This document shows, one piece after another, positions 11,792 to 60,078 of a stretch of DNA of 64,000 nucleotides. How positions within the stretch are numbered: the first letter of the stretch is position 1; each line of letters starts with the position of its first letter. Both the position numbers and the translations under genes were made by a program. The stretch is from Lachnospiraceae bacterium (GTDB lineage: Bacteria; Bacillota; Clostridia; Lachnospirales; Lachnospiraceae): NCBI GenBank assembly GCA_024698705.1, contig JAILQX010000017.1:13988-77987 (forward strand), in the 5' to 3' direction. A model generated the notes under the pieces. The model saw nothing but the letters and a program-made list of their open reading frames with translations. It searched no databases and had not been told where the DNA came from.

Positions 11792-14728
11792 CTACTGCAC
11801 ATTATATTTGCTGAGGATGCGGGCATCCGGCTGGTAGCTGCCGAGTTCCTCGGCTGCACGTTTTATGATCTCATCATAACTGAGTACAGGTGAAGAGAAC
11901 ATGGCGGACGTAGTGATAAATGTCAGCTTGTCTTCCTTCCTGTTGTAGCCCTTTACAAAATAGATCTCAGCGATCTCCTCCATGTCAGGATTGAGGAGCA
12001 GGCTCGTATTGGCTTTTATCAGATAGTTGCCGTTTGCAGGCATGCTGATGACATCCCAGATGCGGCCGTAATCTCCGTATGAAGTCTTGACAAGATCACA
12101 TGTACCGGCATCATAGATCTGCATTGTGTTCGAATTGTAGACTATGAACAGGTACTTACCGTCGCTCGAATACATGATACTGCTTACAACACCGTAATCA
12201 CCCATGATCTCCTTATAAGGCTTTGTATCACCTTTGTTATATATGTATATCTTCTTGGATTTTGAATCACAGACTGCCGCATGACTGCCGTCTGCCGAGC
12301 AGGCCACATCATCACTGATGAGCCTGAAACCGGTGATATCGATCTTGATACCGGCATCTTCACCGGTCCTTGTATTCTTAAATTCCACGTATTCATTGCC
12401 GTCATCAGTTGTAAAATATCCGAGATAATTGCCGTCTCCGTATACCTCGAGATCATACAGATAAATATCATCACCAAATTCTATAGTCTTACTGTGCTTC
12501 TTTTCCGCAATATCGTAATATTCCAGAGCTTCCCGTCCGAATAACACAAAACCGTCATCGCCGTCACCCACATAGTTGAAGCGATAGTTTGGCGTCTTAA
12601 ACTCGTCTATCAATGAGGCATCCAATGTATCATAAAGTGATACCGTGAATTCATCATCTCCCGTTTCGGTCAGGATGACTCCGTATTTCAGGTTGTCAGA
12701 TGTGTAATCATAGTTGGCAACATTGGCTGTAAATTCCACATTGGGGCTCTTCAGATATTCATACAACGTGACATAATTCCTGCCCTGAGTTGCAAGGAAA
12801 AGCTTTCCCTTAGCCATACAGCTGTCTTTGACCTTGCCGTTGATCTCATATTCATACAGCGAACTGTCAAGGACCAGTCCGTTTTCAAGGACATATCTGT
12901 TGATAGTACCGTCCTTCGTGATAAGGACTTCAAATTTACCGCCGCTGAGCGGGAATGAATCCACTACCGCCGAGCTCAGACCGCTGTTATAATAGACCGA
13001 TCCGTCATAAGGGCTCAGAGTAAAAGGTCCGTCTGAATCCCTCGCGTAGAGGAAATCCTCTTCTTCGCCTTCGTAATAACGCATGTCGTATAAGAATGAT
13101 GCGATCAGTTGATTATTTGTAAATGCTATCTTTCCCTCATCCATGTTTATTCCGATGATCACACACTGATACTCTATGTAATTGCCGGTCGAGGTCGCAC
13201 TTACATAAGCCATATTGTCATGCATGCACATGGTTGTATAATAATCGCCTTCCGGTCCGAGGTATACATTTTGGATCATGTCACCACTGTCGGTATCATA
13301 TACCACGAAATAATTCTTTTCATCTTCCATCAGACCAACACTTACAATGATACCGAACTTACTGCCGTCATCGGAAAATGATGCCGTTATCATATTGGCG
13401 TAATTTTCTTCCGCAAAGTCACCTTCCCACGAGATCATCGGCTTTGTGTATTCAGCCTTTGCCGTAGCCGTATCGATCAGTATGATGTCATCGTTTACAA
13501 CCATGCATTTCGAATGATCACTGTTAAAAAAGGCCTTACCGACATGATCGGAAATATATGTTTTATTTCCGGACGGTATGTCATATATGTATTCACCTTC
13601 TTCGTCGAAAGTTAAGATGGCATCATCATTGAGAAACTTGATGTAGTCCATGTTATTAAACAGATCACCGACACTGAGACCTGCGACTTCTTCTCCGCTC
13701 TCCACATCCCAGATGACCAGATTATAACTCTCATTGAGTGCCGCGATATGTACTCCCCCGGGTGATACGGTGATCCCGGTAACTCCCGAACCCGCATCAA
13801 AATTTGCCATGGGCATGTACAGATCACCTGACGAATAGCAGCCGAGTGCCTTGGTCATGGCCTTCTGTGCTTCTGCGGCGTAAGGTATGTTATCATTGGC
13901 CGGATCTTTGGGCATCGAGTAATAAAGAGCGTAGAGCGCTTCCATCCTTCGTCCCTCGCTCATGATCGTATCCGAAGCATCGGCCATGCTTATCTCGTAT
14001 TTTTTCAGTGATTCTTTGTATTGCTGCTCTATCTCACCGGCCTGACGGCTGATCTCAACGTTCTGTGCCGCTATTTCCTCAGACTGCTTTTTGATCTTGT
14101 GTGCAGTTATAGCACTGTATGTTCCGAATGCAAGTACAACAGCCATGACAGCCGAGCCTATGGCCAGTATCCTGTGCATCCTCTGTTCACGATGCCTCTG
14201 CTTGAGGTCGTCAAAATTAAGACCGAACATGGGGGCTAAAAGCCTGAGGCCCTCGTCTTTCATCCTCTTTTTGATCTCGTCCCGGTTTGCTCCCCTGAAA
14301 TCCGCTGCAAGCGGTTCACAGAGAATACCCTCCTCATCCTTTAAAAGCTCTTCGGGAAATGAATCGGCCGGCTCGCCTTCAGCCAGCACAACAAATACAT
14401 GCTCCCTGCCATGCATTTTCATGAAAGTCTCTATCTCCTTGCGGCACCACAGAGACTCCTTGAGCCTTGGCGTACAGATGACTATGAGATTACTTGAATT
14501 CTTCAGTGCCTCAGTGATCGGATCGCCGAGATTGGCTACAAGCGGCAGTTCCTCCTGATCCCTGAATACCCTGCTTATCTTTGCGGGCAGGTCGGGATGC
14601 GCCTTTCTGACAGAGCGCGGCAGTTTGAAACTCTCCAGATACTTATGAAGTGTCTTCGCAACAAACATATCCAGTTCGCAATGTCTGTAGCTTATAAATG
14701 CGTCATAATGTATGTTTTCCAGATTCAT
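11792..14728 (-). CDS. TIR-domain protein: N-terminal TIR, one TM helix, coiled coil, C-terminal WD40/beta-propeller
   Basis: YDAFISYRH, VFRDQEEL, SLWCRKEI (catalytic Glu position); TM RILAIGSAVMAVVLAFGTYSAI; propeller-like repeats such as ITVSPGGVHIAA...LVIWDV and IMYSSDGKYL...MQIYDA. Confidence 0.85.
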   Translation of the reverse strand: MNLENIHYDAFISYRHCELDMFVAKTLHKYLESFKLPRSVRKAHPDLPAKISRVFRDQEELPLVANLGDPITEALKNSSNLIVICTPRLKESLWCRKEIETFMKMHGREHVFVVLAEGEPADSFPEELLKDEEGILCEPLAADFRGANRDEIKKRMKDEGLRLLAPMFGLNFDDLKQRHREQRMHRILAIGSAVMAVVLAFGTYSAITAHKIKKQSEEIAAQNVEISRQAGEIEQQYKESLKKYEISMADASDTIMSEGRRMEALYALYYSMPKDPANDNIPYAAEAQKAMTKALGCYSSGDLYMPMANFDAGSGVTGITVSPGGVHIAALNESYNLVIWDVESGEEVAGLSVGDLFNNMDYIKFLNDDAILTFDEEGEYIYDIPSGNKTYISDHVGKAFFNSDHSKCMVVNDDIILIDTATAKAEYTKPMISWEGDFAEENYANMITASFSDDGSKFGIIVSVGLMEDEKNYFVVYDTDSGDMIQNVYLGPEGDYYTTMCMHDNMAYVSATSTGNYIEYQCVIIGINMDEGKIAFTNNQLIASFLYDMRYYEGEEEDFLYARDSDGPFTLSPYDGSVYYNSGLSSAVVDSFPLSGGKFEVLITKDGTINRYVLENGLVLDSSLYEYEINGKVKDSCMAKGKLFLATQGRNYVTLYEYLKSPNVEFTANVANYDYTSDNLKYGVILTETGDDEFTVSLYDTLDASLIDEFKTPNYRFNYVGDGDDGFVLFGREALEYYDIAEKKHSKTIEFGDDIYLYDLEVYGDGNYLGYFTTDDGNEYVEFKNTRTGEDAGIKIDITGFRLISDDVACSADGSHAAVCDSKSKKIYIYNKGDTKPYKEIMGDYGVVSSIMYSSDGKYLFIVYNSNTMQIYDAGTCDLVKTSYGDYGRIWDVISMPANGNYLIKANTSLLLNPDMEEIAEIYFVKGYNRKEDKLTFITTSAMFSSPVLSYDEIIKRAAEELGSYQPDARILSKYNVQ

Positions 14729-22297: not shown

Positions 22298-23422
22298 TCA
22301 TACATAATCTTTTATAATATGTAATTCAATAAGCAAATCTTTAAGTTTTTGTTTTATGCATGCTATAGGAAGAGCAATAAAAACAGCTCTTTTAAAATTC
22401 CCATTTTTTTTCAAACTCTTCATAAACCTTCTCCTTCCAATATGCCTGTTGGATGGATGTTTCAGTTGATGATTCGCATCAACTGCTGCACTTAAATCAA
22501 CCTCTTCTAAATGCAATTCAGCTGTTTCAAGTAAGGCAATACCCTTCTCACTTTGACAAAGGATAAGTGAAACTCCCTTATCCATCTTATCCGACAGCTG
22601 TCCCCATGCATCTCCAAGTGTGATATCAGAGACGCGTTTGATAGACGCGTACCTACAAGAATAGCAATTCTCTGTATAATTAAGACTATTTAAAAAAGCC
22701 AAAAGATACGAATCCAAAACGCGATTAGGCTTAATACGACTTCCATTTATGCTTATTCCAAATCTGTTATTATTTCTGAAGTCTATTTGCGTGATAGTCT
22801 CCCATATAATTCCTTCATCTGAAATGTATTGTTTCAACAAACTTGGCGATGGGGTCCCATGGCAAATCAAATCCATGGTGTATAGTTCTTCATATTCCCT
22901 ATAAAGACTTATTACTCCAGCGACTTGACATGGAAGGCCAATAAAAAGGACTTTCTCACCTCTACTAAGAAGAGTTTTAATCTCTTCATAAATGTTTTGT
23001 GGATTACTTTTAACATATTTTGACCCAGCAAACTTGTTTATATCTTTTACATTATTAGTTGCCTTAAATATAAAATCTCCATCCTCAAATAAACAAGAAA
23101 CCACATATCCGCCTTTTTTTACGAAAGACATAATAATAGCTGAAGCCGCTCCTCCCGATGCTGAGTGTTGTCTGATTTCTTCCGGGGCCCACCCTTGTTT
23201 CCAAAAAATCGGCTCTCTCAACTCGCATAAAACTTCATTTGGACAAACCTTTTTACATGTATCGCAATCCACACACTTTTCCTTATCAATTATGGCATTA
23301 AGTGCTCCTATAGAATCTTCTATTCGTATAGCATTCTTGGGACATACGTTCTCACAAGCTCTACATCCAGTACACATATCAATATCACATACTGTACTCA
23401 TCTTTTCACTCTTTCTCATCAT
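22298..23422 (-). CDS. 4Fe-4S protein with FrhB-type (F420 hydrogenase beta subunit-like) domains, polysaccharide-locus type
   Basis: CTGCRACENVCP, CVDCDTCKKVCP, SASGGAAS, GSKYVKS, GLPCQV, DLICHGTPS, CYSCRY. Confidence 0.88.
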   Translation of the reverse strand: MMRKSEKMSTVCDIDMCTGCRACENVCPKNAIRIEDSIGALNAIIDKEKCVDCDTCKKVCPNEVLCELREPIFWKQGWAPEEIRQHSASGGAASAIIMSFVKKGGYVVSCLFEDGDFIFKATNNVKDINKFAGSKYVKSNPQNIYEEIKTLLSRGEKVLFIGLPCQVAGVISLYREYEELYTMDLICHGTPSPSLLKQYISDEGIIWETITQIDFRNNNRFGISINGSRIKPNRVLDSYLLAFLNSLNYTENCYSCRYASIKRVSDITLGDAWGQLSDKMDKGVSLILCQSEKGIALLETAELHLEEVDLSAAVDANHQLKHPSNRHIGRRRFMKSLKKNGNFKRAVFIALPIACIKQKLKDLLIELHIIKDYV

Positions 23423-24867
23423 CTGCGCAGACTCTTATGCCTATTTAAAACTATATGGGATACTCCCTTAACTAATTCACGAAATTCTTTTCCAAAAACA
23501 CATGGTATAACAATAACGCAAATTATCCTTATGATTTCATATGCTATGCCATTAAAAAATAACGACACTCCCGAAATAATCATTATAAAAAGACATGTAA
23601 AATATTTTAAATCTGATATTTTTATTCTAATATATTTTCGGGTATCAAAAAGGCGATAAATAAATACTCCAACATAACTTAACAACGTAGCAACTGCAGC
23701 TCCATTAACTTTCATCTTTGGTATTAGGATCAGATTCAACAATATATTTATCGTTGCCCCCAATGCTGCCGAAAACAAAAACCCCTTTCCATCTTTCTCA
23801 ACTACATATGGTGTTGCCAAAAAAGATCCTAGAGAAAGAAAAACAAACCCTATTACTAAATATGGTGTATATTTCCAAGACTCATAAAACTCTTTTCCCG
23901 TATACACCCGTAAAAAAGATTTAATAACAAGAAAAATGGATACTGCAACAAAAGAAGCGGTAGCGAACAGTCCTCTAAACACTTTATTACTATATGCTTC
24001 CTTATCGTCACTATCATTTTCTCGGATTGCCGAGTAAGACCATGCCTGGTTAAATATCTGTACTAAACCAGTTAATAGAGATGGGATTTTATATGAAACC
24101 GCATATACTCCATTTGCCGCTTCACTAACCAATGCTGTAACCATAATTCGATCCGATGAATTAGTAACCCACCACAGAAAAGTGTTGGGCGCTAAAACCA
24201 TTGCATATCGTATCATATTTTTCGTTAAAGCAACATCAATATGAAATGCCTTTAACTCTAAAATTACCTTTCCGGCAATACACGCATATATGGAAGTGAT
24301 TAAGTTTGCCAAAATATATGCTAGAAAATACCCTTTTATCCCTAACTTAAATGAAACCAGAAATAAAATATTGAATCCTGCTATTAATCCCGCATTAATG
24401 ATATTCCCTATAGAATACTTTAATAACTCTTCCTTTCCCCTTAAATAGCACAAGAATAATTGACTACTTGCTAACATAAATATACATGCACAAAGATAAA
24501 AAGAGTATTCAGAGATATACTGCGCCTGGTGAAGAAAAACAACCGGAAATACTACGTGAGTAATTGGTATTGCAAAAAGTGTGATAAGTAACGCTATTCC
24601 CCAAATACTTATTCCCGTACTTATAATCCCTGTCCTATCCGAATCTTTATCAAGTGGAAATCTCATCAATGATTCACCTATATTCAATATTACTAGAGGC
24701 GCCAGAACAGTACATATTGTAAAAAGTAAATCTATAATTCCATATTCTTCTGTAGTTAAAACATTCGTATATAATGGCACTAGAAAAAAAGCTATTATTT
24801 TCGTACCCAAGCTACCAATTGCGAAAATAAAGGTATTCTTAGCAAGATATCCCCTGCGTCCCATCAA
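23419..24867 (-). CDS. wzx: Wzx flippase
   Basis: About 12-14 TM; LAKNTFIFAIGS...LVPLYTNVL, SDRIMV...GVYAVSYK. Confidence 0.88.
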   Translation of the reverse strand: MMGRRGYLAKNTFIFAIGSLGTKIIAFFLVPLYTNVLTTEEYGIIDLLFTICTVLAPLVILNIGESLMRFPLDKDSDRTGIISTGISIWGIALLITLFAIPITHVVFPVVFLHQAQYISEYSFYLCACIFMLASSQLFLCYLRGKEELLKYSIGNIINAGLIAGFNILFLVSFKLGIKGYFLAYILANLITSIYACIAGKVILELKAFHIDVALTKNMIRYAMVLAPNTFLWWVTNSSDRIMVTALVSEAANGVYAVSYKIPSLLTGLVQIFNQAWSYSAIRENDSDDKEAYSNKVFRGLFATASFVAVSIFLVIKSFLRVYTGKEFYESWKYTPYLVIGFVFLSLGSFLATPYVVEKDGKGFLFSAALGATINILLNLILIPKMKVNGAAVATLLSYVGVFIYRLFDTRKYIRIKISDLKYFTCLFIMIISGVSLFFNGIAYEIIRIICVIVIPCVFGKEFRELVKGVSHIVLNRHKSLRR

Positions 24868-24868
24868 T

Positions 24869-25834
24869 TCATCTCCAACTTCTGTTTCTTACTGCAATAG
24901 AAATGTATGTATCAATTAAACACATTCTCAATGCTTTACCCACTCTAGTACGATGTCCAACCAGTTGCCATAATAATCTGTACATTTCTCTTAACTCATT
25001 GGTCATCAGTTTTTTGTTTTCTTTATCTGGCAATTGATTCATTGCGCGAATCAAACGATGTCTTACTATTAATTCGAAATACTCGCAGGCATAAACCAAA
25101 TTATCCGGAGCATTATTATTTACAAAAAATTTTTTTAATCCTCTAGCAACATCTATTCCTGACCATTGCCCTGGAAAAAAAGCTCTTTTACTCTGAGATA
25201 ATGGATTTTGCACCCAATGATATAATGGCGTATCATCAAAATATAGTTTTCTCACCTTATACATCAATCTAATCATCATTGAATAGTCTTCATATTGACT
25301 ACCCACTGGGAAAACAACATCCTCTATTACTGATCGACTTATCAGCTTGTTCCACACCGCCCCAGAAGCAGTTTTGTTTTGAAAAAGAATATTATATATA
25401 AAAACTTCCGACTCATATATACCCGAATGCATTTCAACAAATCTATTCTCCTCGCTTCCGTCTATATAAGTCATATAATTAGCGCAACAAGACAGAAGTA
25501 CATCATTATCGATAGCATTCTTTAAGAGTCTCTCATACATTGTAGGTTCTATATAATCGTCATCATCTACAAATCCTATATAATCCCCTGTGGAGATTTC
25601 TATGCCAAAATTTCTCGCTTCAGCCTGTCCCCCGTTTGCCTTGTGTAACACTACTATCCGTTTATCCTCTTGTTTTAATTCGTCACAAATATGAGGAGAT
25701 TCATCTGGGCTTCCATCATCAACAAGTATTATTTCAAGGTTTTCATACGTTTGTTTCATAATCGACTGAACACACTTACGTAACGTTTTTTCACCTCGAA
25801 ATACGGGAACTATCACGCTAATTTTACATTTCAT
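24869..25834 (-). CDS. GT2 glycosyltransferase
   Basis: ISVIVPVF, LVDDGS, ARNFG, FVDDDD. Confidence 0.9.
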   Translation of the reverse strand: MKCKISVIVPVFRGEKTLRKCVQSIMKQTYENLEIILVDDGSPDESPHICDELKQEDKRIVVLHKANGGQAEARNFGIEISTGDYIGFVDDDDYIEPTMYERLLKNAIDNDVLLSCCANYMTYIDGSEENRFVEMHSGIYESEVFIYNILFQNKTASGAVWNKLISRSVIEDVVFPVGSQYEDYSMMIRLMYKVRKLYFDDTPLYHWVQNPLSQSKRAFFPGQWSGIDVARGLKKFFVNNNAPDNLVYACEYFELIVRHRLIRAMNQLPDKENKKLMTNELREMYRLLWQLVGHRTRVGKALRMCLIDTYISIAVRNRSWR

Positions 25835-25880
25835 TTAAAAACCGCCTAAACAATCTAATAATCTAATAAAGCAGGAAACA

Positions 25881-27011
25881 TCAGTCAATCAAAATCTTCT
25901 TCATTATCGAAAAGGATTTTTCTCGCTCAGATAACAATACTTGTTCAACTTTATCAAAACCTATCTTCCTATCACATAAGTCATATTCATCAAATGACAA
26001 GAGAATTCTATCTTCTGTACCCGTCATCATTAAAATGCTTTCTATTCTAGTGGCATATTTCTTCGGTTTAACCACAATAAACGGCACTTTAAAGTTTAAA
26101 GAAAATGCAGTCATATGAAAGGAATCCGTTATTATACAGGTGGCATCTGAAATCAAACGAAGAAATGTTTCTATTGTAACATTATTCAAGCATCTTCCTA
26201 TTTTTTTTCGATCCCCTCTTCGCATACCAATACGTATTATTTGCCAGCCTTTTAGTATCGCTAATTCTTTAGTATACTTTTCAAATAATGGATTATCATT
26301 AAGCTGGTATACTAGAAGATATTTGCCCTTAATGGTTTGCTTCTCTGCAGCAAGAGTTCTCCATTCAACGTCAGTTAACATTAATGTTGGATCCAAAACC
26401 TGATGGGATTTGATTCCAATAGAATCCAACAACTCCTTCGCAGAGTTTTCTCGAACCGTTATTCCGGAATATTTACACAACATTTTCTGAAACAAAGAAA
26501 TTTCTTTTGTGTCAAGGTGCTCCTTTCCAATGCTTGAAGAATAAGATATTCTTTTTGATTCTTCTGGCAAGAAATCAAGAAAGAAAACTCTGTCCACTCC
26601 TCCGTTCCAATCACTATTCCATATTTGATCACTTCCCGAAATATACACATCTGCCACAGGATAGTTTGATAAAAGTTCCTCGAATGAATAATATCTGGCC
26701 TGAGTCAGATTCACATTATGCGTAATGAACTCCCAAAAGATGTTTTTTTTATCTACAAACATCACCCTAATAAACCATTTAGAAAATGATCCTATTGGAT
26801 TGCGATCATCATTTATCAACTTGATTCTTGAAGTAATTCTATTCCTTCTTAAAATTAGTTTCGCAATTGCATCTGATGTGTTGCTCTCTCTCCAATAATC
26901 AATGAATTCAACATCATATCCAAGTTTATTAAGTACTTTCATAGTTGCATATGTCTGTAACACCGACCCATAGTTTCTAACTGTATGTAAAGTAATCACA
27001 TCCGCTTTCAC
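25881..27011 (-). CDS. Polysaccharide pyruvyl transferase family protein
   Basis: NYGSVLQTYA, SGSDQIWN, SYSSSIG, VRE, DPT, TDSFH; GTG start. Confidence 0.9.
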   Translation of the reverse strand: MKADVITLHTVRNYGSVLQTYATMKVLNKLGYDVEFIDYWRESNTSDAIAKLILRRNRITSRIKLINDDRNPIGSFSKWFIRVMFVDKKNIFWEFITHNVNLTQARYYSFEELLSNYPVADVYISGSDQIWNSDWNGGVDRVFFLDFLPEESKRISYSSSIGKEHLDTKEISLFQKMLCKYSGITVRENSAKELLDSIGIKSHQVLDPTLMLTDVEWRTLAAEKQTIKGKYLLVYQLNDNPLFEKYTKELAILKGWQIIRIGMRRGDRKKIGRCLNNVTIETFLRLISDATCIITDSFHMTAFSLNFKVPFIVVKPKKYATRIESILMMTGTEDRILLSFDEYDLCDRKIGFDKVEQVLLSEREKSFSIMKKILID

Positions 27012-27144: not shown

Positions 27145-27993
27145 TCAGTCTCCCAAAGTATACTTTTTAAAACCATCTATCTTCCCTTTTAACGAATATA
27201 ATGAACGCTTATACTTCTTATTACCGATACTGTACAATAATATTCCGCCCATACTTTTTATGAGCGATTTTATATATAACCAGCCCCACAGGATCTTTCT
27301 GTTTTTTAAATAATATTTTTTATATAATGCCCCAAATCCAACACTGTAATTATATGTACGAGTATAATCAATTATATCTGTGTTACTTTTATGATAAACA
27401 ATTAACGCAGGATTATATATAACTCTCTTTTTTTCTATAAGTGTTTTAATTACTATATCAGTTTCTTCCCCCGCTCCATATTGGGCTCCAATACCAAAAT
27501 CCATATCAAATCCATCAGATAATATACTTTTGTGTATTATCATTGCCGCACTCATACAATAATCAAATATTGAATTCCATTTGATATTGATCGTGTTTGC
27601 CTCTATCATGTGCGGAAGCAGATACTCTCCTGTTATCGGATCTTTTATTCTTCCCGCAAGTATTCCAACGTCGTTTGTATTTTCAATTGTTTCATTAGCT
27701 TCTTTTAAGTAGTTATGATCATAAACTGCATCATCATCAATCAGAGCAATAAAATCACCTTCGCAAAATTGTAATCCAAGATTTCTGGATCTTGATAACC
27801 CTTTTTCTGATACATGATAATATTTTATACATTCACTATTCTGATAATCATAATTGATATTATCACTCTGATCTATAATTACTATTTCATATTTATCATA
27901 TGACTGCTCAAGTAAAGAATTAACACATCTTCTCAACAATTCCTCGCGATTCAAAGTACATAATAAAAATGAAAATTTTATATTTCTACCCAT
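27145..27993 (-). CDS. GT2 glycosyltransferase
   Basis: LLCTLNR, IIDQS, GLSRSRNLG, LIDDDA, GAGEETD. Confidence 0.88.
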   Translation of the reverse strand: MGRNIKFSFLLCTLNREELLRRCVNSLLEQSYDKYEIVIIDQSDNINYDYQNSECIKYYHVSEKGLSRSRNLGLQFCEGDFIALIDDDAVYDHNYLKEANETIENTNDVGILAGRIKDPITGEYLLPHMIEANTINIKWNSIFDYCMSAAMIIHKSILSDGFDMDFGIGAQYGAGEETDIVIKTLIEKKRVIYNPALIVYHKSNTDIIDYTRTYNYSVGFGALYKKYYLKNRKILWGWLYIKSLIKSMGGILLYSIGNKKYKRSLYSLKGKIDGFKKYTLGD

Positions 27994-28005: not shown

Positions 28006-29094
28006 TTATTTCCAAAATGGTATATACGGAATATATGCCTGCATGTTTTTGAAATATGGTATCATAAGCACTCCGCATATCATAACCTTTAATATCTTAC
28101 CGTTGGCAGATCCGTTTTTACTCTGTCTAATAAAGAATTCCGGCAGATATAATATTGCTACCTGTGAAAAATAAAGGGATAATCTTGCCGGATAATTCAT
28201 ATTTCGTAAAACAAATGCTGTAACGATATAAACACATATTATCGCTATTTTTTGATATGCATCTTTTTTCCCTTTATCATCAATATATGATTTGTTTTTT
28301 TCCAAATATATGCAATCAAATACTATTATTAAGATCAAAAGCAATGCCATATAAAAGCTATATGTTTTTCCATCATTCTTGGTTAGATTATCCACTCTGA
28401 GATAGCCAACATACGCCGGGAAAAATCTGATAAATAATAATGTAATTGATTTATAAGCGCCCTCTATCAAAGCAATAATGACAGAAAAAATAATCGTTTT
28501 TTTTAAATCCGGTTTGATCAGCATAACAATATAAAATAAAATGGCAACGATCGAAATCTGATGAACCCCTACGGCAATTAAGAAAAATACTATACTGGTC
28601 TTTATTCTTTGACTTTTTAGCATACTATATGCCACCAAAACGATAGCCATAGCCACACACTGTCTTGTGGCATTAAATGCAAAAAGGTATAATCCCAGAG
28701 TAATATATATATACCACGACGTTTTTATATCTGTTGACTCCTTATAGATCACATATCCATAACAAGTCACAATAATAATGGCATTAAGTATGATTATTGC
28801 CTGAGCTTGCGGAAAGAAAAAGAATAACGCTTTACTATAAATGGCATAAATAGGGGCTTGTTTAAGGAACATTTCAAACCCGGCACGTGAATTAACATAT
28901 AATCTCATTATACCCAAAGTATCCGTACCGACGCTTTTCCCTCTGAATCCCATTAGTATTCCTAATGCAACAGACGCAAGTATAACTTCTATTTTTCGTA
29001 TTTTTAAAATATTGTTTGTTCTGTTTTTTAATAAATAATCAATTAAACCAGTTGTAGATAAAACAATTACTACAAGGCCTATATATATACCCAT
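28006..29094 (-). CDS. wzy: Wzy polymerase, EpsG family
   Basis: About 10 TM; GFRGKSVGTDT, FNATRQCVA, VHQIS, RLSLYF. Confidence 0.8.
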   Translation of the reverse strand: MGIYIGLVVIVLSTTGLIDYLLKNRTNNILKIRKIEVILASVALGILMGFRGKSVGTDTLGIMRLYVNSRAGFEMFLKQAPIYAIYSKALFFFFPQAQAIIILNAIIIVTCYGYVIYKESTDIKTSWYIYITLGLYLFAFNATRQCVAMAIVLVAYSMLKSQRIKTSIVFFLIAVGVHQISIVAILFYIVMLIKPDLKKTIIFSVIIALIEGAYKSITLLFIRFFPAYVGYLRVDNLTKNDGKTYSFYMALLLILIIVFDCIYLEKNKSYIDDKGKKDAYQKIAIICVYIVTAFVLRNMNYPARLSLYFSQVAILYLPEFFIRQSKNGSANGKILKVMICGVLMIPYFKNMQAYIPYIPFWK

Positions 29095-29101
29095 AACAAA
29101 T

Positions 29102-30148
29102 TCATCCTATCAATAACCGATATAATCTGTTTGCTGATTCTTTCCAACTATATTTTTCTAACAGTTTACTGCTATCTATGGTCTGTTCTGTTATTTCAGA
29201 AAATGACTTTACAGATGATGGATCGATATACAAAGCAAATCCGTCATATATTTCACGCAAACACGGTATATCCGATATGATTATTTCTTTTGCACCTGAT
29301 GCAACAGCTTCCAGCGGCGGAATACCAAATCCTTCGTAAAATGTTGGAAAAAGAAAGGCCTCACAATATTTCATGAGTGCCTTCGCTTCTTCATCTGACA
29401 CATATCCAAGATATTTCAAATTGGTTAATTGTGAATAATCTTTGGATATGACATCAGCGATTTTTCCTCCACCCGCAATAACAAATGTTTTTTTCGGGTT
29501 GTTTTTTGCAGCCTCAACGATCCATTTAAAGTTTTTATTTGGTGCTAATGTTGCCATAGCAAAATAATAGTTATATTTTTCTAACGAATATCTATGGATT
29601 ACGTTTTCATCTTCAACTATGTTTTCAATATGTTGCCATGCGTTATATATGACATGTATCCTGGATTCATTTACATTATAGTGTTTTAAGATTTCAGATT
29701 TTGAAAATTCGGATACTGTGATTATCTGCATATCTGAATTTACGATCAACCTATACATGTATTTACGATACATTACCGTCAAAAAACCTTTTAAACTGGT
29801 ATTAAAAAGTTGAGGATTGACCTTTAAACCGATATCATGCAAGGCAACATACCCTTTTTTATAAAAAACAGGGATCGTATTCTCAAAGAATATTCCTTTA
29901 GTCCTGTTCTTTTTCAGATACCTCATCAGGTCGATCTGTTCCCAGATCCTTTGTGAGTGATTTCCATATTTGATTATTTTAATATTATTTAACTTAAAAT
30001 CTCCTTTATACCATTCAGGAAGCAACAATTCGATAGTTGTGTTGTCATCTATGAGCTTATCCAATTCTTTAGTTATCTCAATTGCATATCTTTGAATGCC
30101 TGTGATACGTTTGGTTAAAAAGATACCGTCAATAACATAATCAGCCAT
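29102..30148 (-). CDS. GT4 glycosyltransferase
   Basis: ITGIQRYA, TVSEFSK, PNKN, FPTFYEGFGIPPLEA. Confidence 0.9.
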   Translation of the reverse strand: MADYVIDGIFLTKRITGIQRYAIEITKELDKLIDDNTTIELLLPEWYKGDFKLNNIKIIKYGNHSQRIWEQIDLMRYLKKNRTKGIFFENTIPVFYKKGYVALHDIGLKVNPQLFNTSLKGFLTVMYRKYMYRLIVNSDMQIITVSEFSKSEILKHYNVNESRIHVIYNAWQHIENIVEDENVIHRYSLEKYNYYFAMATLAPNKNFKWIVEAAKNNPKKTFVIAGGGKIADVISKDYSQLTNLKYLGYVSDEEAKALMKYCEAFLFPTFYEGFGIPPLEAVASGAKEIIISDIPCLREIYDGFALYIDPSSVKSFSEITEQTIDSSKLLEKYSWKESANRLYRLLIG

Positions 30149-30155
30149 ATGCGCC

Positions 30156-31304
30156 TCATTTCATCTCGTTATTTATAAATCTTCTGAAATTATCATAGAA
30201 ATATTTAGACAGGAATTCCTTTTCCACACGTTCTTTTGCCGCTTTACCATATTTATCACGCAGTTCTTTGTCTTCACCTAATTTGATAATCGCATCAGCA
30301 TATGCTTTGACATCTTTATTGGGAACTTCGATTCCTGTTACATTGTTGATATTGACATAGTTAACACCACTGCCTTCTATCGTATATGTAACAGCAGGTT
30401 TCTCATAATACATACCTTCTGCCAAAGCTATACCGAACGCCTCATTTTTTGTTATAGATGAGAAACAAAAGATATCACAGGCATTTAAATATGCTTTTAA
30501 TGCTTTTCCGTCGATCTCACCCAACAAAACAACATTGGTTAAGCCTTCTGATAATCTTTTGATTGCTGCTGTTGACTCATCTTCTCTGCCAATGAGATAT
30601 AAAACATATTTATCCGGCAGTAATCCCATTGATTGTACCAGATACTCAAACCCTTTATACGGGACCTGTCTTCCAACACCAACACATATGATCTTATCTT
30701 TATTTTTCTCACGTATTTTGTTGGATTCTATGCGGGTGTCCTCGTCAATTACAAGTTTATCTTCTTCAATGCAATTCGGTATTACAACACATTTTTCTTT
30801 ATACTGGGAAAGATAATAACTGTCAGTTATATAGTTAGGACTGGTTGCTACGATTTTCGTCGCTTTATCCAATAGTCTGACTGTCAGTTTTCTGAATATC
30901 TTCTCGCCTATCTTTTGCTTAACTATGTCAGAATGCCAGTAAACTATCAGCTTGGATGAACTGCTTAAATGCTTTAATGTGTAATATTCTGTAAATGGAT
31001 TGGGGAGATGTAAGATGATAATGTCAGGTTTGAAATCTTTTATCAATTTCTTTATGTTTTTTGCCATTGAAATAGAAAGTGGCTGAGAAAACAGTTTTAG
31101 TTTTGTACCGCATCGTGTTATTTCAACCCCTTCAACATTATCTACGCTGTCTTCTTTTCCACGTGTAAAACATACTATCTTTTCTTCATATTGATCCGAT
31201 ATTGCATTTGAAATCGCTTGAGCTATTTTTTCAATACCGCCCAACTCAGGATAGTAATAATTTACTATCTGCAATACTCTCTTTTTAGTACTATGATCAT
31301 CCAT
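30156..31304 (-). CDS. GT4 glycosyltransferase
   Basis: GGIE, HLPNP, WHSDIV, VGRQVPYKG, NEAFGIALAEGM. Confidence 0.9.
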   Translation of the reverse strand: MDDHSTKKRVLQIVNYYYPELGGIEKIAQAISNAISDQYEEKIVCFTRGKEDSVDNVEGVEITRCGTKLKLFSQPLSISMAKNIKKLIKDFKPDIIILHLPNPFTEYYTLKHLSSSSKLIVYWHSDIVKQKIGEKIFRKLTVRLLDKATKIVATSPNYITDSYYLSQYKEKCVVIPNCIEEDKLVIDEDTRIESNKIREKNKDKIICVGVGRQVPYKGFEYLVQSMGLLPDKYVLYLIGREDESTAAIKRLSEGLTNVVLLGEIDGKALKAYLNACDIFCFSSITKNEAFGIALAEGMYYEKPAVTYTIEGSGVNYVNINNVTGIEVPNKDVKAYADAIIKLGEDKELRDKYGKAAKERVEKEFLSKYFYDNFRRFINNEMK

Positions 31305-31316
31305 AGTAGTTCCCTT

Positions 31317-32660
31317 TCAAGCCGTAGTTTTTCCCTCATCAACCCCTTCGGTGCTTTCCTTCATAAACAGAATCTTTACTGTTGCAAAACATATCCTCAG
31401 ATCCTCGATAATACTTGGATGTCCTATATATATCAGGTCCATAAGAAGTTTATCATATGGGGTTGTATTGTATTTTCCATATACCTGGGCATAACCTGTG
31501 AGACCTGCCTTGGCTTGTAATCTGAGTTTAAATTCCGGTATTTCCTTTTCGTATTGAGCAGCTATTTCCGGACGCTCCGGTCTGGGGCCTACTATGCTCA
31601 TATCGCCTTTAATGATATTGAATACCTGAGGTAACTCATCGAAACGGATCGCTCTGATCACTTTTCCGACCTTTGTGATTCGGTCATCCTTATCACCCGT
31701 CGATAATCTGGCAACGCCGTCTTTCTCCGCATCAACACGCATGCTTCTGAACTTGAGTATATAGAATTCCTTACCGTCCTTTGTAAGTCTCTTTTGCTTA
31801 TATAGCACGGGTCCGCCATCCGTTTTAACGGCAATGGCTGTAATTAGCATGAATGGTGATAAGATTATCAAAAATATCAGACTGCAGACTATATCGAAAA
31901 CTCTTTTGAACAGAACATATTCAGGATTGGGTCTGTATCTTCTTACCTGCATGAGTGGCAGGTGGAACATATGAAGTGTTCTGGCACTGCCCATCATCAC
32001 ATCTCCAACCTTGGGCAGGATCATAGTTTCCACGTTGTTCTCTATGCATGCTTTCAGAATTGTATTTCTGTCGTGACTGCTTATACCAACGATAAATACA
32101 GTTTCATACTCTTTGACCAGTTTAGGATCGGCAAGAACTTCATCTACATGAAGTTTCGCAGCTATGTTGTATTTCTTATCCATTCCATAGCTTCCGACCA
32201 GACCTGCAAAATTTTCACGCCTGTTATATATTACTGCGGATTTACGAGGTTTATGTGCTTTAAAATACCAGATATGGACAAGAGAAGACCACGCTATACT
32301 CAGGCCCACCTGTATTATAAGGCATGAGATCATAGGCCATACATTAGGCAGATACAATGATAACAGCCATATGACCATGAACATGATCGAATCACTTATA
32401 AAGAGCGCCAGAAACTGGCTGTATATCATTTCCGATATCTGGCTTGTTGAAATGATAAAGCCGTCATATGCTCTGCAAAGGATGATATACAGTATTGCAA
32501 ACATACCTATTACCACAAGGTCACCCTTAAGATAATAATGCACCTTGGCATGTACCGAATAATGCACATACCATACCAGTGCGAAGCTTGCTGCCATCAG
32601 AGCCGCATTCAGTATTTTCAACAGTCTGACCGCCAGATCGTGTCTCAGATTGCTATTCAC
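31317..32660 (-). CDS. Priming polyprenyl-phosphate hexose-1-phosphate transferase (WcaJ/CpsE-like)
   Basis: KRVFDI, KFRSM, DELPQ, MSIVGPRPE, GLTGYAQV. Confidence 0.92.
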   Translation of the reverse strand: MNSNLRHDLAVRLLKILNAALMAASFALVWYVHYSVHAKVHYYLKGDLVVIGMFAILYIILCRAYDGFIISTSQISEMIYSQFLALFISDSIMFMVIWLLSLYLPNVWPMISCLIIQVGLSIAWSSLVHIWYFKAHKPRKSAVIYNRRENFAGLVGSYGMDKKYNIAAKLHVDEVLADPKLVKEYETVFIVGISSHDRNTILKACIENNVETMILPKVGDVMMGSARTLHMFHLPLMQVRRYRPNPEYVLFKRVFDIVCSLIFLIILSPFMLITAIAVKTDGGPVLYKQKRLTKDGKEFYILKFRSMRVDAEKDGVARLSTGDKDDRITKVGKVIRAIRFDELPQVFNIIKGDMSIVGPRPERPEIAAQYEKEIPEFKLRLQAKAGLTGYAQVYGKYNTTPYDKLLMDLIYIGHPSIIEDLRICFATVKILFMKESTEGVDEGKTTA

Positions 32661-32673
32661 TCTTTACGCCCTC

Positions 32674-34692
32674 TCATCCCTTTTTGATTGCCTTTACGAG
32701 TATCCTCATATCTCTTGCAAGGCTGTATCTTTGAACATATATCATGTCATATTTGAGCATATCTTCATTGTTGGTGTATTTGCCGCCATACGCCTGGGCA
32801 TATCCGGTTATTCCGGGTTTTGTTCTCAGACGATACTTGTAATTACTGTCTTCGGCGAGAAGTCTGTCAGTCTTCTCTTTGGTATATGCCATCGGTCCGA
32901 CTATCGACATCCTGCCCCTGAACACTGCCATGAGTTTCTCTGTCGTCCCGGCCTCTTCCTTATATGCAAATCTCCTCATGCGGAACTCTTTGCCGTATCT
33001 GCCGGTATATGTATCGCTCTTCCATACCTGTCCGCAAATGATCTTGGCTTTAATCGACTTGATGATGATCGATGGTATCAGGATGATCAATGCCAATGTT
33101 GAGAAGCACTGATCAAGTGCTCTCTTAACCATTCTGTTTTCCCATGTGATACCATACTCCTTAAGTTCTATGATCGGAGCTTCTATCAGTTCCATGATAC
33201 CTGCGCAGTTTATCAGCAGGTCAGACAGTTGCGGTACCATATATACTCTTACAAAATGGCTGTAGCAGAATTCAAGTATGTCGTTACGCAGTTCGGTATC
33301 CATCTCTCCGAGGATCACTGCGCCGTACCAGTACAGGCATTCGTGCTTGATCTCATCAAGTTTCATGTCGGTATCGATAACCTTCACTATACGGTATCTG
33401 TCCTGACGCATATTGAATGCATCAATGGTCGAAGTTAAGTTCTTATTACTTTGAACAACAAGTATCTCTTTGGGCGGAAATACCCTGCTGTAGATCCAGT
33501 CACTTATTATCGTCCATATGATCGTAAGTACAAGCTGCATTCCCAGCAGTTTTAGCATGGGTATAACAGGTATCAGCCAGTTCCTTATAAGTGACAATTG
33601 GAAATATGTTATGACATCAGTGATCAATATCGCTGACAGTTGGGCCGCTATGATACTTCCCGGTCTCTGATATCCGGTCTTCATGCCATCGCCTGTTTTC
33701 GATATGAAAAGCAATATCATAAAGTATATGGCGAGTATCAGCAAATGTCCTCTGAAATACAGTTTCAGACCACCGCCGAACAGATAACCTTCCTGACTCA
33801 CTCTGACCTTGGCCAGATAGGGATAAAGTTCCTTGAACCATGCATAGGCATACAGTCCCGTCTGCCCGACTATCCCGACTATGGAAAGCTGTACGGCTGT
33901 AAATCGCTTGAGGGCCTCAAGATATCTCCATATAACGTCCGAAAGCACTCTTCTGACCGTCGCTCTGAAAGCCCACATACACAGGCAGAACACAGCTGTT
34001 GGCAGGCTCAGATGTTCTACGTTTCTGTAGAGGTTCCATATACGCTTTACAGCTGTACCTTTATTTGATGACAATGATTCTCCGGGTCTTCTGTAAATCG
34101 CCAGAGCCTCATCCAGTCCGTATGCATTTATCCCGCTTTTGAGTATCTTCCACCATGTCGCAGAATCTTCACTGCCGACATCAGGCATCTCAAGAAGACT
34201 TTTATCTACTATCTGCGTATCTATAAGAACCGTTGATGTGAAGATAACGGTTCTTGAAAGTGCTTTTCTGTAGGCAAGAGATTTGGGAACATGAACAACC
34301 TTGCCAAGCGGATTGCCTTCCTCATCACCGTAGTGATACGAGGTAAATACAAATCCCGCTCCCGTCTTGTCCATATACTGAAGTTCTTTAAGCAGTTTAT
34401 CCGGATACCACAGATCATCCGCATCAAGGAATGCCACATATCTGCCCTTTGATGCTTCCACACCGGTATTACGTGCCTTTGCGGCTCCTTCGTTCCGCTC
34501 CTTGCAGATCAATATGATCCTCTTGTCATTGGTTTTTTTCTGAAGAGCTTTGATCTTTTCGACACTGTCATCGGAAGATCTGTCGTCAACAAGTATGAGT
34601 TCCCAATCCTCATATGTCTGGGTCCTCACACTCTCTATGGTCTTCTCTATGTACTTGCCGGCATTGTATACCGGAACTACGATACTTACCAT
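32674..34692 (-). CDS. TuaG-like GT2 fused to a degenerate priming-transferase-like module
   Basis: N-terminus VSIVVPVYN, LVDDRS, FLDADD, EDSATW; C-terminus KRALDQ, MSIVGPMAY, PGITGYAQ, but no DELPQ. Confidence 0.8.
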   Translation of the reverse strand: MVSIVVPVYNAGKYIEKTIESVRTQTYEDWELILVDDRSSDDSVEKIKALQKKTNDKRIILICKERNEGAAKARNTGVEASKGRYVAFLDADDLWYPDKLLKELQYMDKTGAGFVFTSYHYGDEEGNPLGKVVHVPKSLAYRKALSRTVIFTSTVLIDTQIVDKSLLEMPDVGSEDSATWWKILKSGINAYGLDEALAIYRRPGESLSSNKGTAVKRIWNLYRNVEHLSLPTAVFCLCMWAFRATVRRVLSDVIWRYLEALKRFTAVQLSIVGIVGQTGLYAYAWFKELYPYLAKVRVSQEGYLFGGGLKLYFRGHLLILAIYFMILLFISKTGDGMKTGYQRPGSIIAAQLSAILITDVITYFQLSLIRNWLIPVIPMLKLLGMQLVLTIIWTIISDWIYSRVFPPKEILVVQSNKNLTSTIDAFNMRQDRYRIVKVIDTDMKLDEIKHECLYWYGAVILGEMDTELRNDILEFCYSHFVRVYMVPQLSDLLINCAGIMELIEAPIIELKEYGITWENRMVKRALDQCFSTLALIILIPSIIIKSIKAKIICGQVWKSDTYTGRYGKEFRMRRFAYKEEAGTTEKLMAVFRGRMSIVGPMAYTKEKTDRLLAEDSNYKYRLRTKPGITGYAQAYGGKYTNNEDMLKYDMIYVQRYSLARDMRILVKAIKKG

Positions 34693-34712: not shown

Positions 34713-35879
34713 CTAATCGTTCAATCCTACTTCCTTGTAGAACACATCTATTATCAGATCGTACAACGCCTCTTCATCCACGTAGTACTCTTCAAATTCT
34801 TCTCCCATAACGGTCTCACCTTTTATCATATGAAAACCGTCTGTTTCAAATGTATATCCCGTGACCTCCGGCGCCAGATATGCAACCTCATCAAATGTCA
34901 CATCCGTTGTCATATACGGCATTAACTGATTGTATAGCTCACTGACAACTCCTATGTCATCTTTTGCCGCCGCTTTTGCCTGACTGACAAAATTTGTCAG
35001 ATATTGCTTCTGTCTTGCAAGTCTGACGTCTGCAGAACCAAACTCGCCGGTGTCTCTGTCACGTACGTACATTGCAGCATCATTTCCCATCAAATGTACC
35101 GCTTCGCCCTGCGATATTATCTTTCTGTCCTTTTCATCATATACATCCGACAATGCTTCGACATTTACTCCGCCCACGGTATCATTGATGATCGGTATCG
35201 CTTTCATGTTAATGGCGGCGTAGCCGTGTATCGGTATGTTGTAGAGGAGTTTTCTGACCGCATCGACCTGGTATTCGCAGGATTTTTCCACGCCGTTGCC
35301 GAAGCCGTGCTGTACGGCTATCTGGGCCTTGACCGTGTCGACGTAGTCGCCGTTTTCATTGTATATATCTATATCGGTCATGGTGTTTCTGTTGATGCCG
35401 ACTATATTGATCTCTCTGTTGTACTGATCGAGAACAAGGAGGAAAAGCGCATCTGCCTGGCCGCCGTTTGTTCCTTCAGCCACTTCCTTTACCTTGCCGC
35501 TCTTGTCTATGCCCATGAAGAGAAATGTGATCAGGTCATCGTTATACTCATATATCTTTCCGTTATATTTGACCCAGCCTTCCTTCCACTCCTGCTTCTC
35601 CTCGGGGGGCGCTTCGATGGTTTCCGGTGTCTGTAGCACCGGTACGGCCGCCTGAGCCTGCTTTTCAAGGTTAACCTTGCCGACAGCCCTTATCACCGTC
35701 CATGAGGCCACCATGGCAAATATGACACCGAAAACAGAGAACAGAATATTTCTTGCTATCTTTCTCTTCCGTTCTCTCGATGCTCTGGCCAATGCTACCG
35801 GATCCAGCATGGTCTGCTTTTCATGTTCAATTTGCCGGAAATTTCGTCTGTTACCAAACATTGTCAGATCATTCCTCAA
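34713..35879 (-). CDS. LCP (LytR-CpsA-Psr) family glycopolymer ligase
   Basis: TM anchor; FLFMGID, QADALFL, INRNTMTDI, YVRDR, RLARQKQY. Confidence 0.88.
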   Translation of the reverse strand: MRNDLTMFGNRRNFRQIEHEKQTMLDPVALARASRERKRKIARNILFSVFGVIFAMVASWTVIRAVGKVNLEKQAQAAVPVLQTPETIEAPPEEKQEWKEGWVKYNGKIYEYNDDLITFLFMGIDKSGKVKEVAEGTNGGQADALFLLVLDQYNREINIVGINRNTMTDIDIYNENGDYVDTVKAQIAVQHGFGNGVEKSCEYQVDAVRKLLYNIPIHGYAAINMKAIPIINDTVGGVNVEALSDVYDEKDRKIISQGEAVHLMGNDAAMYVRDRDTGEFGSADVRLARQKQYLTNFVSQAKAAAKDDIGVVSELYNQLMPYMTTDVTFDEVAYLAPEVTGYTFETDGFHMIKGETVMGEEFEEYYVDEEALYDLIIDVFYKEVGLND

Positions 35880-60077: not shown

Positions 60078-60078
60078 G

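Follow-up and report, generated by a model that had tools for sequence, protein, structure and literature searches.

Four genes at positions 22298–27011 of the window (the whole 64,000-nucleotide stretch analysed here, from an uncultured Lachnospiraceae bacterium of gut or rumen) are predicted from their sequences and context to form a polysaccharide tailoring module that makes a 1-carboxyethyl (lactyl) ether instead of a pyruvate ketal, a reading to which we give a probability of roughly 0.7. The block encodes a polysaccharide pyruvyl-transferase family protein (PPT), a family-2 glycosyltransferase (GT2), a Wzx-type flippase and a FrhB-family iron-sulfur flavoprotein. Lactyl-ether sugars have been known since the 1970s–80s in Shigella, Klebsiella, Butyrivibrio and other bacteria. 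Such a pathway is no new idea: glucolactilic-acid genes were reportedly described in 2006–2008, and the window adds a member to a system already known from genetics. In the literature, we found no characterised enzyme for lactyl-ether sugars other than for muramic acid, and no reconstitution of the PPT/FrhB-like reaction with purified enzymes. The sequence-only reading of this DNA had also invoked lactyl ethers in Butyrivibrio exopolysaccharide; there is a 1988 report of 4-O-(1-carboxyethyl)-D-galactose from that genus, and its tie to the window is by family (Lachnospiraceae) only.

The block lies on the minus strand, where it is tightly packed and forms the 3′ end of a Wzx/Wzy polysaccharide locus of low GC that spans 35879 to 22298. 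GC content is 32–35% over 22–31 kb, against approximately 44% in the flanks. The genes of the locus are as follows.

34713–35879, minus strand: LytR-CpsA-Psr protein (Pfam)
32674–34692, minus strand: GT2 with a partial Bac_transf domain (Pfam)
31317–32660, minus strand: Bac_transf initiating transferase (Pfam)
30156–31304, minus strand: GT4, the second of two (Pfam)
29102–30148, minus strand: GT4 (Pfam)
28006–29094, minus strand: EpsG-type polymerase (Pfam)
27145–27993, minus strand: GT2 (Pfam)
25881–27011, minus strand: PPT of the WfeP-type clade, 376 aa (PF04230, E 1.3e-37)
24869–25834, minus strand: GT2, 321 aa (PF00535, E 1.1e-38), possibly adding the sugar that is modified
23419–24867, minus strand: Wzx-type repeat-unit flippase, 482 aa (PF01943, E 1.7e-21)
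22298–23422, minus strand: FrhB-family iron-sulfur flavoprotein, 374 aa, with an N-terminal 2x[4Fe-4S] ferredoxin domain and a FrhB core (Pfam, AlphaFold, Foldseek, phmmer)

The PPT and FrhB-like genes share a strand and lie 2.46 kb apart, with only wzx and the GT2 gene in between, and the start of the FrhB-like gene overlaps the wzx stop or is within approximately 20 bases of it. Pfam matches, cysteine motifs and gene order confirm the two proteins and their place in one exopolysaccharide sub-module, as first noticed from the sequence. They are also the single PF04230 match and the single PF04432 match in the whole genome (96% complete). A scan for promoters and terminators returned sites no more numerous than in shuffled sequence.

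The FrhB-like protein matches PF04432 (E 4.1e-23, 82.4 bits) and scores slightly below the 22-bit cut-off for PF04422 (20.5 bits). Fer4 dicluster matches cover residues 14–64, which contain two CxxCxxCxxxC motifs (the first from residue 17, the second from residue 50), and four further cysteines (C165, C187, C253 and C256) are invariant across 35 relatives. The AlphaFold model has a pLDDT of 91.7, and its best Foldseek matches are the F420-reducing subunits 8rja_E and 8riu_B, Fsr (7np8), FrhB and HCAR (5dqr); a probability of 1.00 against 8rja_E, 7np8, 4ci0_C and 5dqr_B places the protein in the FrhB fold. By phmmer, residues 7–320 align with Fsr.

The FrhB-like and PPT families are paired far beyond chance and the two genes are functionally coupled. 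Among 151 genomes of the same bacterial order there are 34 FrhB-like genes, 32 of them on informative contigs, and 28 of these 32 are linked to a PPT gene (5 fused, 19 adjacent and 4 in the same locus at 2–6 kb); the remaining 4 come without any PPT. In other species (80 loci/species), a PPT lies within 6 kb of 79 of the 82 informative FrhB-like genes. PPT fusions account for 7 of the best 150 cluster representatives of the FrhB-like family, which comprises thousands of sequence clusters, and both domain orders occur. Cultured strains with close homologues of the pair include Fusicatenibacter saccharivorans AM67-22ACA, Gemmiger formicilis DFI.6.10, Clostridium fessum SNUG30386 and Agathobacter sp. 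LCP21S3_B2. The frequent co-occurrence of the two families, stated when the pair was first noticed, is borne out by these counts. In 26 of approximately 117 related loci, the gene immediately upstream of the FrhB-like gene is Wzx-like, and other partners of the family include DUF1919 (fusions), a nitroreductase (a fusion), PEP mutase (a neighbour) and cytidylyltransferases.

A link to a solved structure comes from E. coli O124. Its cluster was reached through enteroinvasive E. coli listed by the ipaH marker, whose chromosomes were scanned for PF04432; a route through glf homologues retrieved O96 and other clusters but not O124, and a tblastn search over a plasmid collection gave no enterobacterial match. 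The FrhB-like and PPT pair is present in 6 of 5426 E. coli genomes, six complete genomes that carry the O124/O164 O-antigen cluster. In strain RMDEC465 the order is galF, wzx (O124/O164 family), a FrhB-family gene (PF04422 and PF04432), PS_pyruv_trans and GT2, followed further on by glf and gnd. Three of the six genomes have lost one base in the region, which leaves the PPT gene as two separate ORFs; in TUM18780, the one split-PPT genome examined, the neighbouring wzx, FrhB-like and GT2 proteins are identical. This one-base loss matches the published wfeP frameshift to which the difference between O124 (GlcLA) and O164 (Glc) has been attributed (PMC7685785). The presence of the same pair in the O124 cluster makes lactic-acid ethers, rather than pyruvate ketals, the most likely product in the window.

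The transferase itself points in the same direction. The window PPT belongs to PF04230 (130.7 bits, cut-off 25.3; profile positions 1–276 of 280) and matches E. coli O124 WfeP at 31% identity and 97% coverage (E 1e-29), whereas BLASTP gives no significant match to the ketal enzyme WcaK. In a tree with WcaK as outgroup, WfeP, the window PPT and all fused forms fall in one clade (SH-aLRT 97), outside which lie, as a clade of their own, the CsaB-like and GT4-fused PPTs from this bacterial order; sampling in the tree is biased, as the presence of a FrhB-like gene was the criterion by which most loci were picked. The WfeP-type clade is possibly not exclusively ether-forming, since a few of its PPTs come from genomes without a FrhB-like gene (e.g. 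G054). PPTs of approximately 750 aa, common in Lachnospirales, were considered as reductase fusions and rejected, being GT4-PPT fusions. We propose that the window PPT is a PEP-dependent enolpyruvyl (carboxyvinyl) transferase.

A ketal as the end product of the PPT is argued against by the gene context, the activity itself being a prediction. The corresponding alternative, that the PPT makes an ordinary pyruvate ketal while the FrhB-like protein has an unrelated redox job (e.g. on a keto-sugar or another substituent), is distinctly unlikely in our estimation. It would fit the non-adjacency of the two genes in the window, the FrhB-like genes found without any PPT in some genomes (e.g. G076) and the fact that PF04230 is best known for ketal formation (PMC6801904). 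It sits poorly with fusions in both orders and a neighbourhood coupling of 88–96%, and with the grouping of the window PPT with WfeP rather than with WcaK or CsaB-like enzymes; moreover, ketal systems such as that of colanic acid need no FrhB-like partner. E. coli K-12 has WcaK and no PF04432 gene at all. The colanic-acid pyruvate ketal of this strain is made with WcaK. As to the comparison of the gene pair with ether and ketal structures suggested when the pair was first described, O124 and K66, which have the pair, carry lactyl-glucose, and the colanic-acid ketal system lacks PF04432.

That the pair makes some other reduced PEP-derived substituent, such as an amino sugar's N-(1-carboxyethyl) group or a C3 acid in reduced or rearranged form, is also unlikely: the variety of FrhB-like partners (DUF1919 and nitroreductase fusions, a PEP-mutase neighbour) leaves room for it, but O-lactyl glucose is what is found in the only structures tied to the exact pair (E. 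coli O124 and Klebsiella K66). The database name of the FrhB-like protein would make it a genuine F420-dependent enzyme or a subunit of a hydrogenase, which we consider very improbable. The family name and fold speak for such a role, as does one orphan CofE-like gene; that gene lies on another contig with no other cof genes beside it, the FrhB-like gene is located in a polysaccharide operon, and neither CofH nor a [NiFe] hydrogenase large subunit was found in the 96%-complete genome, so that the F420 or hydrogenase role of FrhB/FdhB has no counterpart here. The lack of hydrogenase and F420 genes first remarked upon for the window is in line with these genome-wide results for CofH and the [NiFe] large subunit. 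Among the fold matches, HCAR is a solved FrhB-family structure. HCAR reduces its substrate with ferredoxin, not F420. We propose that the FrhB-like protein is a ferredoxin-dependent enolpyruvyl-ether reductase.

Under the lactyl-ether reading, the block would serve as a module that tailors an extracellular or capsular polysaccharide of the Wzx/Wzy type. The PPT would link a C3 unit drawn from phosphoenolpyruvate to a single hydroxyl of a sugar, forming an enolpyruvyl (1-carboxyvinyl) ether; this would happen on the cytoplasmic side, with either a nucleotide sugar or the repeat unit bound to undecaprenyl diphosphate as acceptor. The ring would not close to a ketal; the double bond would be reduced by the FrhB-family flavoprotein, yielding the 1-carboxyethyl (lactyl) ether. 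Reduced ferredoxin would supply the electrons, which would reach the flavin by way of both N-terminal [4Fe-4S] clusters and the core cluster, and the modified unit would then be flipped by Wzx. Such a pathway would follow the logic of MurA and MurB with unrelated protein families. We infer the enolpyruvyl intermediate, the flavin, the ferredoxin donor, the identity of the sugar and the stage at which it is modified. The enolpyruvyl transfer and FrhB-like reduction put forward in the sequence-only reading gain support from comparison, namely the gene coupling, O124, K66 and the WfeP clade. A more specific version, which we hold tentatively and at a little below even odds, is that the FrhB-like partner is an analogue of MurB with an unrelated fold, which uses ferredoxin to reduce enolpyruvyl ethers, may act on the lipid-linked repeat unit and is carried on a mobile cassette with a matching Wzx.

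If the pair makes lactyl ethers, an acid-stable negative charge on a polysaccharide would become predictable from sequence, which is relevant to phage and antibody recognition and to polymer properties, and the misnamed ‘F420 hydrogenase beta’ family would gain a new reductase activity in organisms without F420. If the reductase-cassette version is true, lactyl-ether sugars, now deemed rare curiosities, would rank among the most common acidic groups on the polysaccharides of gut and rumen Clostridia, and their synthesis would be tied to the low-potential redox pool of the cell. The window itself is of modest value, as one more unfused example of a very widespread gene pair.

Comparison with known systems highlights both similarities and differences. 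E. coli O124/O164 (= Shigella dysenteriae type 3; also S. boydii type 17) likewise combines a PF04230 and a PF04432 gene in a Wzx/Wzy locus, and the window has both parts of the enterobacterial lactyl-ether pair, a WfeP-type PPT and a FrhB-family gene in the same Wzx/Wzy operon. In both, wzx is directly upstream of the FrhB-like gene, and the FrhB cores have in common an SxSGG motif and four cysteines. The E. coli pair overlaps by 4 bases and is followed by GT2, whereas the window pair is split by two genes, with GT2 between PPT and Wzx; the window host is Gram-positive, unlike E. coli. The 460-aa E. coli FrhB-like protein has no 2x[4Fe-4S] ferredoxin domain and shares only 19% identity with that of the window (pairwise E 2e-6), and a common function is for this reason suggested by family, context and core motifs.

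In Klebsiella, a pyruvyl transferase with a flavin reductase is confined to K types with lactyl-ether capsules. Among 79 K types, only K66, whose side chain is listed as beta-D-Glcp-Olac (lactyl-glucose), combines HG203 ‘coenzyme F420 hydrogenase’ with the pyruvyltransferase WcqF, while K22 and K37 (4-O-lactyl-GlcA) have the pyruvyl transferase WclZ and a nitroreductase. These loci are likened to the window by gene content, not by sequence, and the K22/K37 reductase is from a different family.

The proposed chemistry is like that of MurA and MurB (a sugar hydroxyl receives an enolpyruvyl group from PEP, and a flavin-dependent step then reduces the product to a lactyl ether), but neither window protein has a Pfam match to the MurA (EPSP-synthase fold) or MurB (FAD_binding_4) families, and the donor is NADPH for MurB and likely ferredoxin, through Fe-S clusters, in the window. 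The ketal pyruvyltransferases WcaK, CsaB, Pvg1p, GumL and ExoV belong to PF04230 like the window PPT, with PEP as presumed donor, but operate without a reductase. The FrhB family (FrhB, FdhB, the N-terminal half of Fsr, F420-reducing subunits of Fwd/CODH and plant HCAR) has its fold and Fe-S/flavin core in common with the window protein, whose N-terminal ferredoxin domain resembles the insert of Fsr and FpoF; it differs from the classical members in a genome where no F420 pathway or hydrogenase was found and in having a glycan-modifying transferase as its partner.

Pfam searches confirmed the sequence-only reading that a polysaccharide pyruvyl transferase (PPT; PF04230) and an FrhB-family Fe-S flavoprotein (FrhB-like; PF04432) are encoded in one polysaccharide locus of the window. 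Every gene of this locus is on the minus strand, running from 36762 to 22298, and in transcription order Pfam identifies:

First of the locus, minus strand: sortase B
34713-35879, minus strand: LytR-CpsA-Psr protein
32674-34692, minus strand: GT2 of 672 aa with only the C-terminal half of a Bac_transf domain
31317-32660, minus strand: Bac_transf initiating transferase, full domain
30156-31304, minus strand: GT4
29102-30148, minus strand: GT4
28006-29094, minus strand: EpsG-type polymerase
27145-27993, minus strand: GT2
25881-27011, minus strand: PPT (PF04230, E 1.3e-37)
24869-25834, minus strand: GT2
23419-24867, minus strand: Wzx flippase
22298-23422, minus strand: FrhB-family protein (PF04432, E 4.1e-23; Fer4; PF04422 borderline)

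Bac_transf domains occur in two neighbouring genes (31317-34692, minus strand). The last four genes, encoding the PPT, GT2, Wzx and FrhB-like proteins, are tightly packed, and the Wzx stop is overlapped or closely trailed by the FrhB-like start. GC content is 32-35% at 22-31 kb, the GT4 to FrhB-like part of the locus, against ~44% around it; low GC in the variable part is usual for exchangeable serotype cassettes, and suggests that this part is such an exchanged cassette. Elsewhere in the window, a 978-aa protein (11792-14728, minus strand) combines a TIR domain with beta-propeller (PQQ/WD-like) repeats; its relatives in Lachnospiraceae MAGs bear the name 'TIR domain-containing protein', and it may act in defence or signalling. 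An 884-aa translational GTPase (57456-60110, minus strand) matches a tetracycline ribosomal-protection model best, at 408 bits against a 775-bit cut-off; it is likelier to be a paralogue of EF-G than to confer resistance.

The best-supported reading of the pair, to which we give a probability of about 0.7, is that MurA/MurB logic would be run by unrelated proteins to yield a 1-carboxyethyl (lactyl) ether. The PPT would catalyse PEP-dependent carboxyvinyl transfer, and the FrhB-like flavoprotein would afterwards carry out a two-electron reduction with electrons from ferredoxin, delivered via its extra clusters. Lipid-linked units serve as acceptors for known PPTs that form cyclic pyruvate ketals, CsaB for example. 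For the lactyl-glucose of Escherichia coli, 'UDP-D-GlcpLA' is written in a review, i.e. modification at the nucleotide-sugar level (PMC7685785); either level is compatible with the GT2 gene next to that of the PPT and with the linked Wzx.

The two families are closely coupled. Across 151 sampled genomes of the same order, PF04230 was found in 138 and PF04432 in 29; all FrhB-like loci of these genomes were fetched, and PPTs were located by profiles and Pfam. Two of the 34 FrhB-like genes are on contigs too short to judge, leaving 32 informative cases: five fused to a PPT, 19 directly adjacent to one, four in the same locus at 2-6 kb (the window's pair among them) and four without a PPT. The claim that the families co-occur in polysaccharide loci thus holds for 28/32 genes here, and also beyond the order, where a pattern scan of 80 further species placed a PPT within 6 kb of 79 of 82 informative FrhB-like genes. 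Fusions were seen in seven of the 150 best cluster representatives, with the PPT first in three and last in four; that the domains are found fused in either order argues strongly for a substrate shared by the two proteins. The window's arrangement, in which a Wzx-like gene immediately precedes the FrhB-like one, recurs in 26 of about 117 loci.

The pair is already known genetically in enterobacteria. Lactyl groups in E. coli O antigens are carried by rhamnose in O58, glucose in O124 and O146, and GlcNAc in O69 and O150, and O164 differs from O124 solely in having glucose for glucolactilic acid, owing to a wfeP frameshift (PMC7685785). We listed enteroinvasive E. coli via the ipaH marker in a complete-genome collection and scanned the chromosomes for PF04432. 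Between galF and gnd, strain RMDEC465 carries wzx ('O124/O164 family'), FrhB-like, PPT, GT2, GT32, wzy ('O124/O164 family'), GT2, glf and GT2 genes. Its FrhB-like protein (460 aa, PF04422 and PF04432) is named 'Coenzyme F420 hydrogenase/dehydrogenase beta subunit C-terminal domain', and its gene overlaps by 4 bases that of the 378-aa PS_pyruv_trans protein. The pair is present at 100% identity in 6 of 5426 genomes, in three of which (TUM18780, TUM18530 and DETEC-C31) the region is shorter by one base, with two ORFs annotated in place of a single PPT gene; of these three TUM18780 was examined, and its wzx, FrhB-like and next GT2 proteins have the same accessions as in RMDEC465. With intact genes assigned to O124 and split genes to O164 on the strength of the review (PMC7685785), the split genotype matches its description of O164, and wfeP is therefore the PPT-family gene.

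Among 79 Klebsiella capsule loci, 'coenzyme F420 hydrogenase' (HG203) occurs once, in K66, adjoining the pyruvyltransferase WcqF, itself confined to K66, while K22 and K37 share the pyruvyl transferase WclZ and a 'nitroreductase' absent from other types (PMC4616057). A composition table gives beta-D-GlcpA-Olac for K22 and K37 and, on one reading of its columns, beta-D-Glcp-Olac for K66 (PMC6856556); a paper title names 4-O-[(S)-1-carboxyethyl]-D-glucuronic acid for K22. Survey and table together place a PPT and a flavin reductase in each of the three K types that bear lactyl groups, and in no others. In the negative control, E. coli K-12, the gene for WcaK, which forms the pyruvate ketal of colanic acid, sits between those of a glycosyltransferase and a flippase, and no PF04432 match was found anywhere on the chromosome. 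Both structures that could be linked to the pair, those of O124 and, by annotation, K66, have an O-lactyl glucose. No published reconstitution of its biochemistry was found in the literature.

The window's FrhB-like protein has two CxxCxxCxxxC motifs, and its AlphaFold model, from an alignment of 35 relatives, has a pLDDT of 91.7. The best Foldseek matches, 8rja_E and 8riu_B, are F420-reducing subunits of the formylmethanofuran dehydrogenase and CO dehydrogenase of an ethane oxidiser, and further ones are the N-terminal half of Fsr (7np8), FrhB, FdhB and HCAR (5dqr); residues 7-320 also align by sequence with the sulfite reductase Fsr. The eight ferredoxin cysteines, SGG (S89-G90-G91), C165, C187, C253 and C256 are invariant in the family alignment, the last four presumably fitting a third cluster beside the flavin, as in FrhB. 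Such matches recall F420, and true dependence on it is very improbable here. The genome (2.5 Mb, 54 contigs, 96% complete) holds a single PF04432 and a single PF04230 match, both within the locus, and searches of it found no [NiFe] hydrogenase large subunit and no CofH. PurH, a housekeeping protein of this genome, has relatives at 93% identity in Lachnospiraceae MAGs. A lone CofE-like gene on another contig (398 aa, G000:C21:132853-134049, or L140:7854-9050 in the fetched locus; F420-0:gamma-glutamyl ligase family, E 1e-56) has unrelated neighbours (LysR, Maf, GH115). Because of these absences and the isolation of the CofE-like gene, the annotation 'coenzyme F420 hydrogenase beta subunit' cannot describe the function here. 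The same fold serves HCAR, the plant 7-hydroxymethyl chlorophyll a reductase, to reduce an organic substrate from ferredoxin, with no F420 involved.

The remaining alternatives turn on the breadth of the FrhB-like family, which at 50% identity comprises 15,413 clusters (E <=0.001) or 5,613 (E <=1e-30). At locus L006 the gene lacks a PPT and is beside ACT and phenylacetate-CoA-ligase-like genes; a 582-aa nitroreductase-FrhB-like fusion (L011:1677-3425), on a contig with no PS_pyruv_trans among the matches listed, is of interest because a nitroreductase also accompanies the pyruvyl transferase of Klebsiella K22 and K37. FrhB-like genes adjoin cytidylyltransferase genes at L030 and L031, the latter from a genome (G076) that lacks PPTs altogether, and at L099:6016-9168 one is beside a nucleotidyltransferase-PEP-mutase fusion of the type used in phosphonate-type glycan decoration. 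A second, PEP-related or CDP-linked role seems to exist. Two proteins (P0264, P0268) have the FrhB-like domain fused to DUF1919 (PF08942) in place of a PPT. In genome G077 a 630-aa DUF1919 protein (L039:3652-5544) is encoded directly upstream of three tandem PPT genes. DUF1919 may stand in as the partner, or may itself be a related transferase. From these other partners and PPT-less contexts it follows that the family has more than one job. That the window's pair makes another reduced PEP-derived group is accordingly conceivable and unlikely, given the lactyl-bearing O124 and K66; an unrelated redox role for the FrhB-like protein is improbable, given the fusions in both orders.

For the lactyl-ether reading, the link to Butyrivibrio is plausible only at the level of the bacterial family: the title of a 1988 report, from a reference list, credits B. 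fibrisolvens strain 49 with 4-O-(1-carboxyethyl)-D-galactose. In the cultured rumen relative Pseudobutyrivibrio xylanivorans MA3014, a polysaccharide locus on a plasmid (pNP95, 16071-18317; L141) has a PPT gene immediately before an FrhB-like one; the PPT is annotated as two overlapping pieces and, by analogy with E. coli O164, may be a natural frameshift.

Compared with known systems, the window's PPT has 31% identity to WfeP over 97% of its length (E 1e-29) and no significant BLASTP match to WcaK. A maximum-likelihood tree built from 115 PPT domains, with WcaK as outgroup and a bias towards loci picked for having an FrhB-like gene, unites the window's PPT with WfeP and each of the five fused PPTs in one clade (SH-aLRT 97; wider clade 99), outside which fall the CsaB-like and GT4-fused PPTs carried by nearly every genome of the order. 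One genome without an FrhB-like gene (G054) has a PPT of the WfeP-type clade, which is perhaps not purely ether-forming. GT4-PPT fusions of ~750 aa, which many of the 151 genomes encode (e.g. L042:7603-9846, L043:6283-8526), probably serve a conserved wall polymer. The FrhB-like proteins of E. coli O124 and the window share 19% identity (E 2e-6), with the core aligned, including SxSGG and four core cysteines; the O124 protein lacks the ferredoxin domain that the window's protein has. What the window contributes is an ordinary case from a Gram-positive bacterium, in which the pair is unfused and the reductase is of the ferredoxin type.
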